From positions 1 to 36,063 of the IMG/VR virus record IMGVR_UViG_3300045988_043817: a stretch of 36,063 bases of DNA; one strand, given 5' to 3'. Within the stretch, counting starts at the first letter, position 1. Every line of letters starts with the position of its first letter. The stretch is from a virus. Shown here piece after piece: positions 4,984-36,063 of the stretch. A program made the translations under genes and the position numbers. The notes beneath the pieces were generated by a model, which was given only the letters and a program-made list of their open reading frames with translations, did not search any database and was not told the DNA's origin.

Positions 4984-6147
4984 TTATCCTTCTATGTCGA
5001 AGTCGCAAAGCGGGCTGTATTCCATGCCCTTAGCGGATTCCGGTACTAGCTTTGGTGCGCCGGGTCTCGATTCGATTGCGTCTCCAAATCTAGCGCTAAA
5101 TACCTTTTTGCCTACCAACTTTTCGAGGTCTCCGATACCTTTTAGCTTGATGTTTAAAACCTCGTCCTCTAGGTACTCGTTTAGGAGCGCTTGGCGTATC
5201 TTCGCCTCATCCTTGATAACTCGGCTGGATCTACCTGCTACGAGCTTGTAGCCCTCCCATTTGTGCCCCTGTATCGCCCTGTCGTAGACGTACTTGTTAA
5301 CTGATTCGATCCAACTTTTGTACGTGTCGATCTTCCCTATAAGGTCTACTATCTCCTCGTCAGATAATAACAGCGGTTCGGGCTTTTCTTCGAAATCTGC
5401 GAGTATTGCATCGCGTTGCGCCCTGCATTGCGCTTTAACCGGGCAAAAACCGCACCAACTTCCGATAACCTGTTTTCCTTTGCCCTGTATTGCCGCTTTT
5501 GCAGCCGGTTTCAGGACTTTTTCTGCCCAGTCGAGTAATTCACCCTTTGACATCTCGAACGTGTCGTAGTGGTCTAATCTGACTTGTGCGATTGTCATAC
5601 GGATTTTTTCGATACGATCCGATTCAAGGCTTTTCAAAGTTCCAAGAGCGTACATTAACATTTGCTCGTTCATGTCAGCCGATACCCGGACACCTGTGCC
5701 GTACTTCAGATCAATAATATGGATCGTCTTGTCAGATACTAGTGTTACGTCTACCGACCCGAAGGAATCCGGCGCGAAGTCCGTAATGTCTACTCGACGC
5801 TCTAGGAACGTCCGGCACATGCCATCCTGTTTTTGCATCTCGTAATTTTCACCGATAACAAACTCGCAATAGTCCCGTATATAATCCGCCATGTCTACGC
5901 CGAAAAGCGGGTTTTCAAGATGTTCGTCTTTCAACGGTACCGCATCATCAATTATCGGATCGTATGCTCCTTCCAAATATTTAGTCAAAGCGTATTCGGC
6001 TATTTCGTGGGCTAGCGTGCCCTCTTCGGCGTAAACGCTTGACTTGCTGCCTGCGGCTTCCGCTAGTAGCGCCGACGGAGTACAATTAATCCACCGTTTC
6101 GCGCTACTCGGCGATAAAATCGCGTGATCTCTTTCTGCGTGTCCCAT
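4984..6147 (-). CDS. PD-(D/E)XK nuclease, DUF2800 family (Cas4-like, Cys cluster)
   Basis: ILSPSSAKRWINCTPS N-terminus, IIDLKYG core, and C-terminal CGFCPVKAQC cysteines. Confidence 0.8.
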   Translation of the reverse strand: MGHAERDHAILSPSSAKRWINCTPSALLAEAAGSKSSVYAEEGTLAHEIAEYALTKYLEGAYDPIIDDAVPLKDEHLENPLFGVDMADYIRDYCEFVIGENYEMQKQDGMCRTFLERRVDITDFAPDSFGSVDVTLVSDKTIHIIDLKYGTGVRVSADMNEQMLMYALGTLKSLESDRIEKIRMTIAQVRLDHYDTFEMSKGELLDWAEKVLKPAAKAAIQGKGKQVIGSWCGFCPVKAQCRAQRDAILADFEEKPEPLLLSDEEIVDLIGKIDTYKSWIESVNKYVYDRAIQGHKWEGYKLVAGRSSRVIKDEAKIRQALLNEYLEDEVLNIKLKGIGDLEKLVGKKVFSARFGDAIESRPGAPKLVPESAKGMEYSPLCDFDIEG

Positions 6148-6713
6148 TACAGACGAGTTGAGATGTATTCGATGAACTCCGCGAACATGCTCTCTTTAAG
6201 TGTCGGGAAAGACGTTGCGCCTACCTGTTCGAATGCTTCTTGCACTAAGGGGCGTTTCTTTGCGTTTAGAGCCTTCATTGCCCATTGCTTACACTCTTCC
6301 ACTGTGTGCTCCGTTTCGTCCTTGGCGGGCTTCTCTACTGGTGCAGCGGGTGCTTTCGGGGCGGGTGCTTCCACTTCTTTAGCTTCTTCCACTGGTGCAG
6401 GTTCTTCCACTGGTGCAGGTTCTTCCGCTGGTGCGGGCTTCGCGGTACGCTTAGCACGTGCCTTCGCGCGCTCTGCTTCCATCAATAACGGCAAGCACAC
6501 TTCTTCACCCTTCGCCTTTGTTGCTTCTACAACCGCGTCCGCCAACTTGTCAAGATCTGTTTTTGCGTTCGCGGTTGCTTCGTCGTTCGGTCCATAAACT
6601 TTGGCTTCCGTTGATACGGGAAGACTTCCCTCTGCCAGCTCGCGCAAATAGTTAGACGTCGCCAACAAATCCTGTTTACTCTCGTTTCCTAATAATTCAA
6701 TTACTACTTTCAT
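6147..6713 (-). CDS. Hypothetical early protein with acidic Pro/Glu-rich repeat linker (188 aa)
   Basis: ATG overlaps the upstream stop as ATGA. PAPAEEPAPVEEPAPVEE is encoded by an 18-bp tandem repeat. TAATG junction with the next gene. Confidence 0.7.
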   Translation of the reverse strand: MKVVIELLGNESKQDLLATSNYLRELAEGSLPVSTEAKVYGPNDEATANAKTDLDKLADAVVEATKAKGEEVCLPLLMEAERAKARAKRTAKPAPAEEPAPVEEPAPVEEAKEVEAPAPKAPAAPVEKPAKDETEHTVEECKQWAMKALNAKKRPLVQEAFEQVGATSFPTLKESMFAEFIEYISTRL

Positions 6714-6889: not shown

Positions 6890-7203
6890 TGCATCTTTTT
6901 ATTGAATTTAAAACTAAGTTCATTAGAGCCTCTAAAGGTTTTAACGTGATCGGAAAAAGCGGCTTTCCGGGCTTGTTCGAAAATGCTTTCGTACCGTTTG
7001 GCATGTGGAATAATAAAACCTCGGATTTTATACTTAAACTTTTTTCCGGCTTCTTCTTCTCGTTGCAAATCTTTGTAGACCATTCCCGACACACCCGGAT
7101 AACCGTATATGTTCGTGACCTCTCCGATCGTTTCGCACGCTTTAATCCTCTCCGTTATCACTTTGTAAAAGAACGCTTCTAACTTGTAAATGTCTACTGC
7201 CAT
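6871..7203 (-). CDS. Hypothetical protein, first gene of the early operon (110 aa)
   Basis: ATG-initiated ORF about 90 nt downstream of a consensus promoter. Confidence 0.65.
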   Translation of the reverse strand: MAVDIYKLEAFFYKVITERIKACETIGEVTNIYGYPGVSGMVYKDLQREEEAGKKFKYKIRGFIIPHAKRYESIFEQARKAAFSDHVKTFRGSNELSFKFNKKMQWKKSS

Positions 7204-7322: not shown

Positions 7323-7383
7323 ACTATTTCCCAAAAAACTTTAGTAATTTAACTCTGATTAACGGTTTTGAAGGTTTGATAAC

Positions 7384-7698
7384 GGTGTAAAAGACAAATA
7401 GTCCTTTTTAAGTGGATCTTTACACCCTTAACTAATTGCGTATCAGTTGTTTATGTGGCAAAAACAGGTGAAGTGCATAAGATATAGGATAGTTTTCTAT
7501 AAAGTTTAAAATAAAATATTTCCATAAATTCATTCACATATTAATTCATATATTTACATATTTTATAGATTATATTACTTTTCCGTTTTTATCTCTATAT
7601 AACATCTTTACATCTTTTACAAATGGTATATATTGATAGATAAAGTACTAGTTATTAGGGAGTTAAGTGTAAAAGATACAAATTTTAATCTTTTACAT
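7384..7698. repeat. Non-coding module copy A (diverged duplicate of 27291-27594) carrying GTGTAAAAGAT-type motifs
   Basis: Identical blocks: 7425-7445, 7604-7624 and 7639-7650. Block 7661-7698 matches copy B at 35/38. Perfect 10-bp inverted repeat at 7668-7677 / 7688-7697. Confidence 0.85.
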
Positions 7699-7782
7699 GC
7701 AAAAAAGCCAACTCGTTAAGAATCAGCGTTTTAAGTTTTTAAGTGCAAAAGATGGAAGGGCATTTATAAAAGACGAAAAGCA

Positions 7783-8370
7783 TTATTTGTCGAATTCTGC
7801 CGAGAATTCTACATGTATTTTAGATTTTGGGTTTTTATTCGATACGGTTATCGTTTGTTTCGGTTTTCCGATCCGAAAGAATAAAAACCGCTTTTGTTTT
7901 ACTGATCCGATCACGTCGATCGTGTCGGTACTGCTAGATTTTATAATCGTGGTGTCCGGTTTAGACTCAACTTGTATATCATTCCACCCGTCGAAGTAGT
8001 GCGCAAACCTGTTTTCCCCGTTCCCGTCCCGGTATTCTGTCTTAACCACGGTGTCCACCTTGGTAACTGTCTCGGCCCTTGTAGCGTTCTTAAGCTCCCG
8101 TATCTTTATCCCCGCCTCGCGTACCTTATTATATAGATCGGCGTTATATAGTTCTAGCTCGTCCTTCTCTAGCTTTAACTGCCTAGCCTGTTCCGCATAA
8201 TCACCCGCCGTAGTCTTGAACGCTACGGCCTCGGAGTTAAGCGCGGTGATGTTGTTTTCCTGCCTTTCTAGCTCTTTATGCTGCCTTTTTATTGTCTTGT
8301 ATGCTGTGAACAATAAAATAGCAAGAAGGACAAGCAAACACAATAAAATCTTAGCTAATGTTATCTTCAT
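7783..8370 (-). CDS. Spanin-like lysis accessory protein (N-terminal TM plus coiled coil, 195 aa)
   Basis: N-terminal hydrophobic segment ILLCLLVLLAILLF, a long heptad-like region, and an ATGA overlap with the endolysin stop. Confidence 0.45.
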   Translation of the reverse strand: MKITLAKILLCLLVLLAILLFTAYKTIKRQHKELERQENNITALNSEAVAFKTTAGDYAEQARQLKLEKDELELYNADLYNKVREAGIKIRELKNATRAETVTKVDTVVKTEYRDGNGENRFAHYFDGWNDIQVESKPDTTIIKSSSTDTIDVIGSVKQKRFLFFRIGKPKQTITVSNKNPKSKIHVEFSAEFDK

Positions 8371-8765: not shown

Positions 8766-9183
8766 TTTTCAAGCGTTTTATGAAGTCTAAATACTTCGTA
8801 TTAATAATTATATCCAGTACCGTAATAAACTCGTTATCCGGCTGGATCTGCTTAAAATTACGGATAATGTTTTTCGAGTACACAAGCGCGAAGAGCGTTG
8901 TCAACAACCGCAATAAGTCCGTATAATTCCCGTGCGGTTCGATAAGGCGCGCGCCTGCCGCCGTAAATACTATAACTATGGCGGCTATCGCGTACTCAAA
9001 AAACGCGTGAAACGCCTTTTTGTGGCTGTACTTTTCTCCTGCCCTTAAACCTGCAATAAGTCCTACTATAAAGTTCAACGTGCCGAATAACACTATAAGG
9101 ACGAAGAACGTCATTATATCATTGGTAACTGTTAGTAGGAACGCGATTGACGCCACGCGTGCCGTATCAAAAACTCCATCCAT
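8653..9183 (-). CDS. Holin-like membrane protein with about 4 TM segments (176 aa)
   Basis: Four hydrophobic segments and a charged C-terminal tail. The start at 9183 gives a TAATG junction with the upstream gene; ATG 9225 is also possible. The 3' end overlaps the endolysin by 113 nt in another frame. Confidence 0.5.
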   Translation of the reverse strand: MDGVFDTARVASIAFLLTVTNDIMTFFVLIVLFGTLNFIVGLIAGLRAGEKYSHKKAFHAFFEYAIAAIVIVFTAAGARLIEPHGNYTDLLRLLTTLFALVYSKNIIRNFKQIQPDNEFITVLDIIINTKYLDFIKRLKNGKLHNSRTNRVNDGEGEEDQQRPDAGSIGESETANQ

Positions 9184-25279: not shown

Positions 25280-26452
25280 CTAATCATTATTCGCGTACTT
25301 CGGGCGGTATTTACGTATAAGATAATCAACGCCGTAACGGATGGCGTCCCAAGCGTGGTTGTAATCGTCTACCGGCTCGTTGGTGTACGTGTCGGTCAGG
25401 TTGTCCTTGACGTAGGTGTAATTGTCCGCCTCGTCCAGTATGTTCGTGCTACGTTTCGTAACAAACAGGTTGAACTGCTTCACCTGCTGGATGCCCGCCC
25501 TTATTGATCCTTTCCCCTTGATGCAGGGAATCGTGTTGCAGCCTAAGCCGCGTAGCTCTATGATAGACTTCTGTTCGGCGTTGTCGCATACCGTAATCGT
25601 GCGGTCCAGCCTTTCCATCTTAAGCCGCTCGGCGATCGTGCGGTTAAGCATCTTGGTTTCGTAACACACCTCGTCTATGTACAAGTTCATTCCCCGCATG
25701 TAGATTTTGACAATAGCGGTCGGGTCGTTCTGGAAGCCAAAATCAAGCCCTGTAACAAACTTTACGTCCTCACCCGTTAAATCCTCCGGCAACGCGTCGA
25801 TCGTCTCAATTTGGGGATATACGAGGCCTTCCAGCCCGCCCGTCAGTCCTTCACCGTAGACGCGCCACCAATTGGCATCCTTGGCGTTCCGCTCTATGGC
25901 TTCTACCTGCTGCTTCGACAAGTACGGGTTATCCTTGTAAGTGCTGTGTATCGTTACGTACTTGTCGCCTGTGAAGTCCGTCTCACCCCAAAAGCGCCGC
26001 ACCGGGTTGAAGTCAATAATAACCTTAAGCGTGGTACGAACGTCCAACTGCCGGAATATCTCGCGGGGTACGCGCTGCGCCTCGTTGATGAAAAGAATGT
26101 CACGCGCCGGACCGTGTACCTTTGACGCGTTGTCACACCCGAAGAACTCGATGCACACACCGGGCTTCACCGTGTAGATCATATCGGACTTGTTGAGGGC
26201 GTTGTCGTCCCACACCCCTTCGTCTAGTAACATGTTCTGAAAGTCGCGGAACATGCCGCGCTTGACAGCGGGCAGCGTGTCGGTAACACACGAGATCATT
26301 AACGGGTCGGGGCTTTCCCTAGCCACGAGATAAAGAAGTTGTAACGCGCTCCATGTCTTGGAGGAACGCGTGCCGCCTTTGCTCGCTATCCCTCGTATGT
26401 TCGGGTCTACAAAATAGTCTAGCATCTTGTTGAAGACATAGGTACAATTCAT
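25280..26452 (-). CDS. terL: Terminase large subunit (PBSX-like)
   Basis: Walker A-like GGTRSSKTW, Walker B-like ILFINEA, a C-terminal nuclease-like region with conserved acidic residues, and an ATGA junction with terS. Confidence 0.88.
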   Translation of the reverse strand: MNCTYVFNKMLDYFVDPNIRGIASKGGTRSSKTWSALQLLYLVARESPDPLMISCVTDTLPAVKRGMFRDFQNMLLDEGVWDDNALNKSDMIYTVKPGVCIEFFGCDNASKVHGPARDILFINEAQRVPREIFRQLDVRTTLKVIIDFNPVRRFWGETDFTGDKYVTIHSTYKDNPYLSKQQVEAIERNAKDANWWRVYGEGLTGGLEGLVYPQIETIDALPEDLTGEDVKFVTGLDFGFQNDPTAIVKIYMRGMNLYIDEVCYETKMLNRTIAERLKMERLDRTITVCDNAEQKSIIELRGLGCNTIPCIKGKGSIRAGIQQVKQFNLFVTKRSTNILDEADNYTYVKDNLTDTYTNEPVDDYNHAWDAIRYGVDYLIRKYRPKYANND

Positions 26453-27159
26453 TTCTTATCCTCCTCACCCTTGTGTTCCTTCTTGAAATCTTTCAGTTTC
26501 CCCATCCTTGCAGACACTTTCGGATCGGTAACGTTGACGGTCAAGCCGCCCTTGATGGCTTCGCCGTTAGACGTGTAGTCCATTTGCATCTTGATCCCGC
26601 GTAGCGCCCTGATGTACTGCGCATCGAACTGTCCGACGCTCGCACCCTGATCCATGTCCGCCGCGATCTCGGCGCGTATGCGGTCTATCGTCTCGACGAA
26701 CTCCTCACATACCGACAAACCGAACTCCTCGAAATTCTTCATATAAGTGTTGCGGCGTTCGTGCAAGTACTTCACCCCAGCCCCTAGGAACGCCGTAAAC
26801 TCGCTCTCGCTCTGTAAGTGCTTCTTCGGCACTTCGTAGAGCGTCCCGGCCGCCGGGCCGGACTTTATTGCCTCGTACACTATAACGGGTGTAGCCTCGC
26901 ACCAAGCCGTGTAAATGGCGTACGCCTCCCATAGCTCGGCGGGGTCTTGCCAGACGGGCGTTTTACCGAACCGGCGCGTAGCCAGTTGGTAGCACCGGGT
27001 GCACTCGAACGAATCGGAGAGGTATTGCGTAGACGCGTACGTCGGCCGGATCGCCCCACCACCACACACCGCTTTAATCCTCTCCTCCGGTACAGGCTTC
27101 TCCTTTGGAGGCTCCACAGGCTTCGTAGTTTCTATAATTTCTTTCTTCTTTGTAGCCAT
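26449..27159 (-). CDS. terS: Terminase small subunit (gp3-packaging-like, 236 aa)
   Basis: DPAELWEAYAIYTAWCEATP...FTAFLGAG resembles the terS N-terminal DNA-binding domain. It lies directly upstream of terL. ATG at 27159; the track start at 27186 is TTG inside the -7 box. Confidence 0.65.
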   Translation of the reverse strand: MATKKKEIIETTKPVEPPKEKPVPEERIKAVCGGGAIRPTYASTQYLSDSFECTRCYQLATRRFGKTPVWQDPAELWEAYAIYTAWCEATPVIVYEAIKSGPAAGTLYEVPKKHLQSESEFTAFLGAGVKYLHERRNTYMKNFEEFGLSVCEEFVETIDRIRAEIAADMDQGASVGQFDAQYIRALRGIKMQMDYTSNGEAIKGGLTVNVTDPKVSARMGKLKDFKKEHKGEEDKK

Positions 27160-27183
27160 ATAATTTTTATTTACATTACCATA

Positions 27184-27211
27184 CAAAAGTAGTCATTTTG
27201 CCCGTCTCAAA
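27184..27211 (-). promoter_or_regulatory. Candidate late promoter (-7 TACTTTTG, sub-optimal 16-nt spacer to TTTG)
   Basis: -7 box at 27191-27184, 25 nt upstream of ATG 27159. TTTG at 27211-27208. Confidence 0.35.
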
Positions 27212-27290
27212 CGCCCTGTACGCCTATACAATCCGTAAAATGTACGTTAACCGCCTCAAACACAGCGCTTTAGCAAAATAAGCCGTTTTT

Positions 27291-27594
27291 AGTGTAAAAC
27301 ATAGAATTATACCATCTTTACGCCCTTAACTAATTGCGTATCAAAGAGTTACAAGCGAAAATCGCCAAATGTAAATGATAAAACATAGTTTCTCTATTAG
27401 TTCTAAAATAAAAAAATGACGAAATAAATTATTTAAAATAACAATAGTATATTTATGTTAACTATATATTCTTCTTTTAATAGTTACTAACTAGTATCTA
27501 TCTTTACATCTTTTACAAATACACTATATTATATGATAAAGTACTATAAATAAGCAAGTTAGGTGTGAAAGATACAAATTTTAACCTTTTACAT
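27291..27594. repeat. Non-coding module copy B (diverged duplicate of 7384-7698)
   Basis: Blocks 27323-27343, 27500-27520 and 27535-27546 are identical to copy A. Block 27557-27594 matches at 35/38. Block spacing is 186 bp here and 188 bp in copy A. Confidence 0.85.
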
Positions 27595-27784
27595 CAAAAA
27601 CTTGAAAAGCGCGTTCTACGTCCTGTGAGAGTGGTAGGGTGTAAAACATGAAATGGCAATGTAAAAGAAGGTTTTGGCTACTTTTTTGTCAAAAACACGC
27701 TTTTTAGTTAAAATACCGTTAAAATCAAGCATTCTCTCTAAAAAGTTTTTTCTCACAAAGTTTTTGTAGAAGTGCATCAAAAGC

Positions 27785-27838
27785 GTGTTAACGATTTTAA
27801 CACAAAAAGGGGTTAACGTTTTTATACATTAACCCCCT
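27785..27838 (-). terminator. Tandem rho-independent terminators ending the early block
   Basis: Minus-strand RNA GGGGUUAA-N12-UUAACCCC-UUUUUGUG (27838-27804), then GUGUUAA-AAUCG-UUAACAC-GCUUUUG (27803-27785). Confidence 0.7.
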
Positions 27839-27844
27839 CAATCC

Positions 27845-28384
27845 CTACATAACCAACCCGTATAGAACTTTCCAGTCGTCCAAAATATCTTTACATTTCC
27901 ATTTCTCCGCCCTTTCTATGGTCTCCCATCTCAAAGTACGGTGGTTCAACTTGTCTAGTGTCCTGCTACCATCACAGTACATATTCACACGGTACAGCAT
28001 CGAAACCTCTATGCCGTATTTGTTCGTCTCGGTGTCTTTGCTCGGATAGATCGGGCGTTCTATGTCATCATTTTCGTATGGCCCTACGCGCTTCTTGTCC
28101 TTGTCGCGGTATAGCATATTCTCTACTGTCGGTATGCGCTCCGGGTCTGTCCGGGTATTCCTGTCGTCCCGTACCTTACTAGCCGCGTATAGTATATCCC
28201 GGATAGCTCCGCAGAATATCTCGGCGTTAACCATGTGAAACGGTTTGCCCTTCACTTTGACGTACTTCACGCCGTTCGCCTCAAGCCAGTTGAAGATGAA
28301 AAACGCGTGAAGATTGTAAACGCGTGCCATGTCCTCGACGACTAAAACCCTTCTCTGTTTCTTTTTAATATATGGTGTCGGCAT
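27845..28384 (-). CDS. Hypothetical protein with possible N-terminal excisionase/MerR-like HTH (179 aa); last early gene
   Basis: VLVVEDMARVYNLHAFFIFNWLEANGVKYVKVKGKPFHM resembles the HTH_17 pattern. It is followed by strong terminators. Confidence 0.5.
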   Translation of the reverse strand: MPTPYIKKKQRRVLVVEDMARVYNLHAFFIFNWLEANGVKYVKVKGKPFHMVNAEIFCGAIRDILYAASKVRDDRNTRTDPERIPTVENMLYRDKDKKRVGPYENDDIERPIYPSKDTETNKYGIEVSMLYRVNMYCDGSRTLDKLNHRTLRWETIERAEKWKCKDILDDWKVLYGLVM

Positions 28385-29490: not shown

Positions 29491-30875
29491 ACTCTATATT
29501 TTTTAATTAGTTCCTTAACCATATTCATAAGTCCGTTTTGCGTATCAGCCTTTCCGCTTAGAGCCGCTATAACCCGCTCGTCTATCGTGCCTTTCGTTAC
29601 GATGTGGTGAACAAACACGCTATTCTTTTGTCCCTGTCTCCATAACCTCGCGTTGAACTGCTGATAAAGCTCCAAGCTCCAAGTAGTACCGTACCATATT
29701 ATACGGTTGCCGCCCTTCTGCATATTCAGACCGTGACCCGCGCTAGCCGGGTGTGTCACTAATACGGGTATCTGTCCCTCGTTCCACCTGCGCACGCTGT
29801 CCACGCCTTCCAGCGCTTCCGCTCCAAAACCCTTGAGGGCTTCCAGTATGCGCGCTTTCTCGTGCTGGAAGTTGTACGCCACCAAGACGGGTGATCCGTT
29901 CGCGGCTTCCACCATCTCAACCAACGTTTCCAGTTTCTCATCGTGCACCGCCCTTACATTCCGGTCTGCATCGTAAACCGATCCGCCCGCGAACTGCAAG
30001 AGTTTGTTTGATAAGGCGGCGGCGCTTAGTGCGGTGATCTCGGCATAGTCGTAGTTGGAATCCCTTAGTAGCTGCAAAACCTGTTCTTCTTCAAACTTGT
30101 CGTACATCTTCTTCACTTTGGCGGATAGTTCTACATAGTTGTTCACGCATGTAAGTTCCGGCATATCCAGGAAGTCTAACGCCTTCATCGAAAGGGTGAT
30201 GTCGGCTATCTTCTCGCCTAATACCGCCTCGGTTGTCGCTAGCGGTTTGTACTCGTAAACTATCCCGCCGTTCTGCGCTCCGGGTCTGAAATAGTTGGCC
30301 CGGTAGTCGGTTATTGTCTTTCCCAACCTTTGCCCTCCATCGACTAAATACATTTGCGCCCATAGGTCAATAAGCCCGTTCGGCGCGGGCGTACCCGTCA
30401 GACCCACCACCCGGCTGACGCTACGCCGGATAATCTTCGCAGCCTTGAAGCGTTTCGACTGGTGATTTTTAAAACTGCTTAATTCGTCCAGTACCAGCAT
30501 GTCGTACGGCACTTTCGACCCGCCCCACATTTGCAGAAGCCATACAAGGTTGTCACGGCTCACTGTGTAAACGTCCGCGTCAGCCCGTGCCGCTATCTCG
30601 CGCTGCTTCGCCGTGCCTTTAATGACTGACAAACGAAGGTGCCGGATATGCGCCCAGTTCTCGATCTCGTCGCCCCAAGTCATTTCGGCGACGCGCTTCG
30701 GCGCTACTATCAACACCTTAGTTACCTCGAACTCGTTTATTAGATCGGCTACGGCTGTTAGCGTACTCACCGTCTTTCCCAGTCCCATATCGAGAAACAG
30801 AGCCGCGTCCGGGTGTTCCTTGATATGCTGGACAGCGGTACGCTGATAGCCATGTAAATTACTCCTCTGTAACAT
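29487..30875 (-). CDS. SNF2-family DNA helicase/translocase (462 aa)
   Basis: Motif I LDMGLGKT, motif II VLDELSSFK, motif III TGTPAPNGLIDLW, motif V HPASAGHGLNMQ, motif VI QFNARLWRQGQ. Confidence 0.9.
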   Translation of the reverse strand: MLQRSNLHGYQRTAVQHIKEHPDAALFLDMGLGKTVSTLTAVADLINEFEVTKVLIVAPKRVAEMTWGDEIENWAHIRHLRLSVIKGTAKQREIAARADADVYTVSRDNLVWLLQMWGGSKVPYDMLVLDELSSFKNHQSKRFKAAKIIRRSVSRVVGLTGTPAPNGLIDLWAQMYLVDGGQRLGKTITDYRANYFRPGAQNGGIVYEYKPLATTEAVLGEKIADITLSMKALDFLDMPELTCVNNYVELSAKVKKMYDKFEEEQVLQLLRDSNYDYAEITALSAAALSNKLLQFAGGSVYDADRNVRAVHDEKLETLVEMVEAANGSPVLVAYNFQHEKARILEALKGFGAEALEGVDSVRRWNEGQIPVLVTHPASAGHGLNMQKGGNRIIWYGTTWSLELYQQFNARLWRQGQKNSVFVHHIVTKGTIDERVIAALSGKADTQNGLMNMVKELIKKYRV

Positions 30876-31077
30876 CGTTAGCCATTAATTTAAATATCAC
30901 ATTCTTTCCGTCCTCCCTGTTATCCGCGTCGCATTGAAGCTCGGGGATATTAACCGCTGTGCACCTAGGGGTGTTCAAGTCCCAACCAACCGTGTAAAAG
31001 ATGCAGCCTTTGCATGCTACGTTCTCGTCCACTTCCACCGCGGCGTATGTACGTCCGTCTACTCTTATGGTTTTCAT
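30859..31077 (-). CDS. Cys-rich small protein (72 aa)
   Basis: Blocks GRTYAA, CKGCIF and NVIFK are shared with the 29059-29263 product. Confidence 0.6.
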   Translation of the reverse strand: MKTIRVDGRTYAAVEVDENVACKGCIFYTVGWDLNTPRCTAVNIPELQCDADNREDGKNVIFKLMANDVTEE

Positions 31078-35612: not shown

Positions 35613-35648
35613 TGTTTTCGGAAAAAACTTTGAAATATTAACAAAAAT

Positions 35649-35737: not shown

Positions 35738-36063
35738 TCACAAAGATAGTAATTTTTTGCTTTCCTCGCTACCTTTACGGATATAAACTACTTGTTGACC
35801 ATATAATTTTGTTCTTTTTAACTTTCCTTTGTACCATCCGCCTAACTGTCTCATAGCTGTTGCCAGTTCGCGCCCCTTCGCGCTTGTATAATCTTCTTTC
35901 CGGCGTCCCAGTGCATCGACCCAAAGCTCCATCAAACAGAACGTATTTTTTTGAACCGTTCCCTCTTCTTCCAGTGATCCGGCCAAGAAGTCAGCGCGTT
36001 GTTGTTCGGTGCGGTCTTCATAGTCGGCTGGGAAAAGCTTATCTACGTAGTTTTCTATAATAC
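35738..36063 (-). CDS. C-terminal part of the primase/helicase gene that starts at 2184. 35738-35944 is unique; 35945-36063 duplicates 1-119.
   Basis: Same frame as 1-2184 after circularisation. The track ORF 35738-35986 starts at an internal TTG only because the window ends there. Confidence 0.85.
   Translation of the reverse strand, partial: IIENYVDKLFPADYEDRTEQQRADFLAGSLEEEGTVQKNTFCLMELWVDALGRRKEDYTSAKGRELATAMRQLGGWYKGKLKRTKLYGQQVVYIRKGSEESKKLLSL
35945..36063. repeat. Terminal direct repeat copy 2 (identical to 1-119)
   Basis: Direct comparison of the two window ends. Confidence 0.95.

Follow-up and report, generated by a model that had tools for sequence, protein, structure and literature searches.

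We propose that the two large intergenic regions of a gut Bacteroides phage genome each harbour a Rep-dependent replication origin of the SaPI Rep/iteron type, i.e. that such an origin has been duplicated at the two operon junctions, and we consider this reading probable, at roughly 0.68. It is backed by the anatomy of the two regions, termed module A (7384-7774, proposed oriA) and module B (27291-27670, proposed oriB), by their conservation at both junctions in three lineages, by the homology of the phage primase-helicase (Pri-Rep) to SaPI Rep, and by the co-variation of one iteron base with a residue in the wing of Pri-Rep. That Pri-Rep binds and melts the modules and actually initiates at both copies is what we infer from these sequence data.

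Genome organisation

The window, i.e. the whole stretch of 36,063 nucleotides that was analysed (IMGVR_UViG_3300045988_043817), is a circularly assembled phage genome of ~35.9 kb in which bases 1-119 are repeated at 35945-36063, an overlap of the size of an assembler k-mer. Its relatives at 84-86% nucleotide identity are cultured Bacteroides siphophages, including BK735P3, BO1, BKR1 and BKO1-1; more distant members are phages of B. caccae (72% amino acid identity in PolA) and of B. thetaiotaomicron and B. fragilis (53%). No replication origin is assigned for any member of this phage family in the literature searched, and queries by phage names and host strains found no paper on the phages or their origins. 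The minus strand carries all genes, and as they all lie on one strand the GC-skew profile is monotonic and uninformative on origins.

The genome is organised in two long transcription blocks. The late block extends from the small terminase gene terS (26449-27159, minus strand; weak match to GP3_package and phrog_606), the start of which at 27159 agrees with the initial annotation, to a DUF6549 gene (7783-8370). The early/replication block begins at a consensus Bacteroidetes promoter (TTTG-N18-TACCTTTG, 7322-7293, minus strand) and codes for p110, an HTH_17 protein, a DUF2800 exonuclease, a gp2.5-like SSB, PolA and the 796-aa Pri-Rep, followed by more early genes, the HTH_17 protein being encoded by the second gene of the operon immediately downstream of module A. 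The block ends at tandem terminator hairpins on the minus strand (27786-27839), one found at 27839-27806 and a second readable at 27804-27786, as had been annotated. The late and early blocks meet at two junctions, which form the two large intergenic regions and contain one module each: module B is flanked by the early-block terminators and the terS promoter, and module A follows the end of the late/lysis block and precedes the early promoter, both taken on the minus strand.

Anatomy of the twin modules

The claim of the initial annotation that both junctions contain non-coding blocks with one architecture is borne out, as 7604-7704 resembles 27500-27600 (101 nt, 81%) and 7416-7445 resembles 27314-27343 (30 nt, 97%), and a gapped alignment of A and B stretches the similarity over ~310 nt. 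Read in gene sense, i.e. on the minus strand, both modules consist of six iterons, an A+T-rich core and three further iterons, giving nine sites of ~11 bp (GTGTAAAAGAT / ATCTTTTACAC) with both orientations on each side of the core. An alignment of 24 module copies in gene sense (A and B of 12 genomes) yields the two forms F = ATCTTTnACAC and R = GTGTnAAAGAT in the order F F, an R-9nt-F unit with an invariant spacer, a tandem R R, the AT-rich core, a single F and an R..F pair.

In module B the outermost sites are B1 (AATGTAAAAGAAG on the plus strand, 27658-27670) and B2 (GGTGTAAAACATG, 27638-27650), both exactly where they had been placed initially. They are followed by B3 (AACCTTTTACATC, 27583-27595), which is inverted relative to B4 (GGTGTGAAAGAT, 27562-27573), the B4-B3 spacer (ACAAATTTTAA, 9-11 nt) being invariant in 24/24 aligned copies, and by the tandem sites B5/B6 (ATCTTTACATCTTTTACAAAT, 27500-27520), which are identical in module A. 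On the other side of the core (27385-27499, 83% A+T), the proposed DNA-unwinding element, B7 (AATGTAAATGATAA, 27368-27381) is the first site towards the promoter, and B8 (CCATCTTTACGC, 27312-27323) and the inverted B9 (AGTGTAAAACAT, 27291-27302) complete the array. A conserved box, CCCTTAACTAATTGCGTATCA, at 27323-27343 is common to module A (7425-7445). Module A shows the same nine-site architecture, with the inverted pair A4/A3 (AGTGTAAAAGAT..AATCTTTTACATG) at 7666-7699, the tandem sites A5/A6 at 7604-7624, a core with 83% A+T at 7479-7603 and the inverted pair A9/A8 (GGTGTAAAAGAC..GGATCTTTACAC) at 7384-7425.

The sites are concentrated in the modules. The motif CTTTTACA has seven copies in the two intergenic regions (1.25 kb) vs. 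two in the other 34.8 kb, a 78-fold enrichment, and GTGTAAAAGAT with up to two mismatches has 26 matches in the genome vs. 12.9 ± 3.7 in shuffled sequences, none of 100 shuffles reaching 26. Half of these matches (13/26) fall in 7385-7753 and 27292-27669, the two modules making up 2% of the genome. The cores, which are 115-125 bp long with 83-84% A+T, stand out in predicted stability as well: the least stable 120-bp window of the genome is 27423-27542 and the second least stable 7482-7601 (both 84% A+T), their -1.00 and -1.01 kcal/mol per bp lying >4 sd above the mean of -1.38 (sd 0.09). The cores of A and B differ from one another, and each is conserved among its own orthologues.

A few iteron-like sequences lie outside the arrays. 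A solitary site, ATCTTTACAT, is present at the 3' end of the CDS upstream of module B, at 27887-27896 and thus one base off the 27886-27895 given initially, and may be a chance match. An exact GTGTAAAAGAT occurs at 30992-31002 in a small ORF (30859-31077) and a copy with two mismatches at 7163-7173 in the first early gene; chance is a possible explanation for both. Besides the iterons, an element resembling AATAGAGAAAC / TATAGGGAAC lies at the edge of the AT-rich core, adjoining the first downstream iteron (window, 27385-27400 and 7489-7504; contig L004, 15459-15480 and 32767-32790; contig L005, ~9108-9120 and ~25715-25730). By sequence it looks conserved in A and B of three lineages while the iterons change, and it might serve in priming or bind a host factor; a simple regular-expression test of a lineage-invariant 'TAATAGAGAAAC' element gave a weak result.

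Twin non-coding elements that head two transcription units and contain inverted repeats might also encode a structured non-coding RNA or act at the RNA level, e.g. as nut/put sites. Against such a function, an Rfam gathering scan and a tRNA scan across the whole window were both negative. RNAalifold on the 24 module copies returned a consensus of -3.65 kcal/mol with neither a conserved fold nor real covariation, i.e. without genuine compensatory pairs, and within the inverted repeats one arm varies independently of the other. We thus consider an RNA-level role extremely improbable.

Conservation of the paired arrays

Both modules are found in 19/19 close GenBank relatives, and paired arrays recur in more distant lineages. 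At the same pair of junctions BC669P1, a phage of B. caccae, carries twins that match over 214 nt (87%) and 69 nt (83%), with the iteron TCTATGACA / TGTCAC. In the B. thetaiotaomicron phage BT566P1 a comparison of the two junctions revealed no long A/B similarity; both contain the iteron CTATCTATCC / GGATAGATAG, with 11 intergenic copies vs. two elsewhere, and the orientation of the sites reverses across an AT-rich centre. Judged from these sequences, the pair of iteron arrays at the two junctions is ancient and the iteron itself lineage-specific, a combination that points to a genome-encoded protein recognising the sites.

The twin repeats break assemblies, and the ends of the GenBank records are no biological termini. 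The records of BKO1-1 and BK745P3 begin and end inside module B or module A, and the record-terminal overlaps in this phage group (141, 119 or 55-65 nt) correspond to assembler k-mer sizes. Another break point of many GenBank assemblies of relatives is the third early gene (ORF 6147-6713), which contains 18-nt tandem repeats (CTTCCACTGGTGCAGGTT) at 6368-6442.

Pri-Rep resembles the SaPI initiator

The Pri-Rep gene (minus strand) occupies 1-2187 with its main part and runs on across the circular junction into 35738-35944, where its 3' end codes for the C-terminal winged helix. The 796-aa protein is composed of an N-terminal primase (PHROG primase match, residues 4-359), a VapE-like helicase (Pfam PF05272, residues 464-682, E 1.2e-75) and the winged helix; an NCBIfam search gave no match. 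Residues 386-711 match the SaPI1 Rep1-DNA complex (PDB 7PDS, 7PDS_A) by sequence with E 1.8e-73, and a weak second segment of this match covers the C-terminal domain as far as the Tyr-Gly-x position. For the last 247 residues an AlphaFold model, based on a 54-sequence alignment, predicts that the C-terminal domain (pLDDT >95) is a winged helix with helix-helix-wing topology. Searching this model with Foldseek returned 7PDS chains at the top (probability 1.0), followed by weak matches (E ~0.05 and above), mostly to winged-helix DNA-binding domains. By these sequence and fold matches the phage protein is a homologue of the SaPI Rep initiator.

An iteron base co-varies with the wing of Pri-Rep

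Among the close genomes, one position of the iteron is T or G depending on the genome and agrees between A and B. Typed by regular expressions of our own choice, the window, BKO1-1, BK735P3 and BK687P3 are T-type (TTTTACA), and BKR1, BK745P3 and others are G-type (TTTGACA). Among 19 close genomes G-type iterons are found in A and B if and only if residue 778 of Pri-Rep is Arg; where the iterons are T-type, this residue, which lies in the motif KLYG-x-QV, is Gln, Ala or Ser (Gln in the window, codon 35795-35797). Seven of the 19 genomes were fetched after the rule had been stated, and 7/7 obey it. In the AlphaFold model residue 778 is located at the predicted tip of the wing, directly after the conserved Tyr-Gly turn, and contacts between Arg and guanine are the textbook form of direct readout.

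Across 41 ORF groups of the 19 genomes, i.e. 11628 aligned amino acid columns of which 4451 are variable, residue 778 is the only column that segregates strictly with iteron type. When the labels were permuted under this strict criterion, at least one segregating column appeared in 3.7% of trials, a figure to be read with the caveat that the permutation ignores phylogeny. A looser test had counted hypervariable columns and therefore produced one or more 'perfect' columns in 17% of shuffles; it was replaced by the strict criterion.

Independent IMG/VR contigs of the same lineage follow the rule in 17/18 cases: Arg goes with G-type iterons in 7/7 and a non-Arg residue (Gln, Ala or Val) with T-type iterons in 10/11 (hypergeometric probability 8/31824, ~2.5e-4, calculated by hand). 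The sole exception is L035 (IMGVR_UViG_3300045988_035735), which has Ala at position 778 and, in module B, mostly G-type iterons mixed with T-type tandem sites, and which might have arisen by recent recombination or be a chimera of metagenome assembly. Within the B. caccae lineage, genomes with Arg or Lys have G-type sites only, the Ser genome has mostly T-type sites and the Pro genomes have both. As these Pro-type phages combine G- and T-type sites, specificity must depend on more than residue 778 alone. When lineages with different iterons are compared, Rep has diverged most in its C-terminal domain, which shows 33% identity vs. ~60% for the rest. Taken together, these data suggest a candidate specificity rule in which Arg or Lys in the wing pairs with an iteron G, and Ala, Gln, Val or Ser with T.

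The search for segregating columns also covered other possible iteron binders. The HTH_17 protein, p110 (the first early protein), p179, p195 (DUF6549) and TerS were considered as such, and none of them, nor any other small early protein, contains a column that segregates with iteron type.

Late promoter and terminase

The terS promoter (TTTG-N16-TACTTTTG, 27212-27184, minus strand) has a 16-nt spacer, with the -7 element found by scan and the spacing read directly. It is sub-optimal, as had been noted initially along with three early promoters with 18-19-nt spacers; three consensus Bacteroidetes promoters with spacers of this length were recovered at 7322-7293, 33148-33118 and 35612-35582. 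Matches to sigma-70-type promoters were no more numerous than in shuffles, and the Bacteroidetes consensus was taken for the scan in their place. In 19 relatives the terS promoter has a good -7 (TATTTTTG) without a properly spaced -33, and two direct iterons abut it.

From such features the initial annotation had derived a model in which the arrays bind a phage transcription factor that activates the weak terS promoter and also acts on the early promoter; under this reading replication plays no part. The spacer in the window, the missing -33 and abutting iterons in the relatives, and an HTH_17 protein encoded just downstream of module A are in line with this model, and parts of it stand: a phage DNA-binding factor for the array, its action at both copies and the sub-optimal promoter all agree with our data. 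The identity of the factor and its primary function find no support, since the only co-varying protein position lies in the winged helix of the replication initiator, with no counterpart in HTH_17, p110 or TerS, which argues against a dedicated late activator. Moreover, the arrays span ~380 bp around a core of the unwinding type, and the iteron nearest to the -33 element lies ~60 nt upstream of it in module A and ~80 nt upstream in module B of the window. A function restricted to transcription activation is thus improbable.

The position of module B next to terS had also raised the possibility of a pac or packaging-initiation region, which TerS would bind as in the case of pacL and pacR of SPP1 upstream of gene 1. 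TerS is of the P22 gp3 type, suggesting headful packaging, and the BKO1-1 record starts inside module B. This start was rejected as evidence for pac, since it results from a 141-nt assembler overlap, a k-mer artefact of the same length as in two other records of that study that start elsewhere. In addition, TerS of the window is only ~66% identical to that of BKO1-1 and relatives with the same iteron type, i.e. it diverges without a change in iteron type, no TerS column co-varies with the iterons, and the same array is present 20 kb away at module A, both arrays tracking Rep. For the copy at 7.4 kb a pac function offers no explanation, whereas a model of two origins predicts it. Packaging initiation at module B therefore finds no support and appears highly improbable.

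The flanks of the modules show further features. In the window and the IMG/VR contigs L022, L023 and L046 module B follows module A in the third nearest to the promoter (sites 8 and 9 and the box CCCTTAACTAATTGCGTATCA), whereas 19/19 GenBank relatives have a GC hairpin and the two direct iterons abutting the terS promoter in this place (window 27160-27343 compared with the relatives, alignment columns 540-700). Together with the divergence of TerS this suggests a recombination junction inside module B. Within module A, a weak terminator-like hairpin followed by a T run (7707-7727, minus strand) is located between iterons A2 and A3, so that the late block seems to terminate within the module; in module B the terminators precede all iterons. 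Another family of repeats, AAAACTTTGTGAGA(A/G)AA (TTTTGAGAGAAAAGTTTT on the other strand), is found at 27735-27780 between the early-block terminators and module B and reaches up to 5-6 copies in B. caccae-type contigs (L004, 15760-15996; L053; L075), and a related AAAGTTTTTTGGGAAATAG lies just upstream of the -33 element of early promoters (7323-7353 and 35613-35642). These repeats might act as an UP-like element or bind another regulator, e.g. the HTH_17 protein.

Comparison with known replication systems

In SaPIs the origin is ~320-370 bp long, with an AT-rich centre flanked by 6-12 iterons, at least two per side and in opposite orientations; the iterons are recognised by the C-terminal winged helix of Rep. 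Rep needs no ATP for binding and melting the origin and is self-loading, and in SaPI5 pri is fused to rep (PMC9371898). The phage system resembles this arrangement in its VapE-like Rep initiator, homologous by sequence and with a C-terminal winged helix, in the primase-Rep fusion as in SaPI5, in nine sites per module, a number within the SaPI range, and in an AT-rich core flanked by 6 + 3 sites with both orientations on each side. It differs from it in several respects. The SaPI origin is single and located immediately downstream of rep, whereas the phage has two modules at a distance of 7.4-8 kb from rep, which ends at 35738, the modules themselves (27291-27670 and 7384-7774) being 16 and 20 kb apart on the circle. 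SaPI iterons comprise 5-6 nt, those of the phage ~11 bp, and the Bacteroidota phage has its own PolA, SSB and exonuclease, whereas a SaPI is a satellite.

For the pair of sites, ori and crr of P4 may be regarded as the closest analogy. The α protein of P4 is a primase-helicase with a C-terminal winged-helix origin-binding domain that reads the same iterons at ori and crr, which are several kb apart. Likewise, the phage has two separated cis sites with the same iterons for one primase-helicase, and A and B change type together with Rep. However, crr is an accessory site, whereas both phage copies carry a full AT-rich core. In iteron plasmids (P1 incC/incA, F, RK2) and at ori λ a replicon-encoded initiator binds iterons adjoining an AT-rich unwinding element, and some of these replicons carry extra arrays that are used in copy control and are devoid of an unwinding element. 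RepA, TrfA and λO are not helicases but recruit DnaB of the host. The phage modules share with these systems the iterons beside an AT-rich unwinding element and, with some of them, the existence of a second array; they differ in that Pri-Rep has a helicase domain, which those initiators do not, and in that neither array is free of an unwinding-type core.

These parallels raise the alternative that one module is the true origin and the other a Rep-binding accessory site, be it an enhancer like crr of P4 or a copy-control/handcuffing array like incA of P1. Both arrays co-vary with Rep, which argues that the same protein binds both, two separated iteron sites read by one primase-helicase are just what P4 has, and the AT-rich cores of A and B differ while each is kept among its own orthologues. 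On the other hand, both modules keep the full origin anatomy, including 83-84% A+T cores that are the two least stable stretches of the genome, and an unwinding element is missing from arrays that only titrate, such as incA. The sequence fits both readings; we deem a division into one origin and one accessory site unlikely and favour two origins.

Proposed mechanism and implications

If modules A and B are both origins, the winged helix of Pri-Rep would bind the ~11-bp iterons on both sides of each AT-rich core, and Pri-Rep hexamers would assemble on either side of the core, melt it and load themselves. Pri-Rep would then prime, and the phage PolA, gp2.5-like SSB and exonuclease would carry out elongation. 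As module B abuts a promoter with a poor -33 element, late transcription may be affected secondarily by Rep binding or replication at this module, a speculative effect on the weak terS promoter. A tentative and rather doubtful extension is a coupled pair of origins, in which Rep hexamers bridge oriA and oriB, forming early and late loops, and occupancy or firing of oriB switches on the terS promoter; late transcription would then be licensed by replication initiation via the initiator itself.

Cultured members of the phage family are numerous and infect B. ovatus, B. caccae, B. thetaiotaomicron and B. fragilis; dozens of contigs from gut and sewage viromes also belong to it. For this family the modules provide precise candidate origin coordinates; they account for the breaking of its assemblies at the module loci and are candidate cis elements for phage-derived Bacteroides replicons. 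If they are origins, the SaPI Rep/iteron mechanism would operate in virulent Bacteroidota phages in a duplicated, rep-distal layout, which raises the question of why two near-antipodal origins have been kept over deep divergence.
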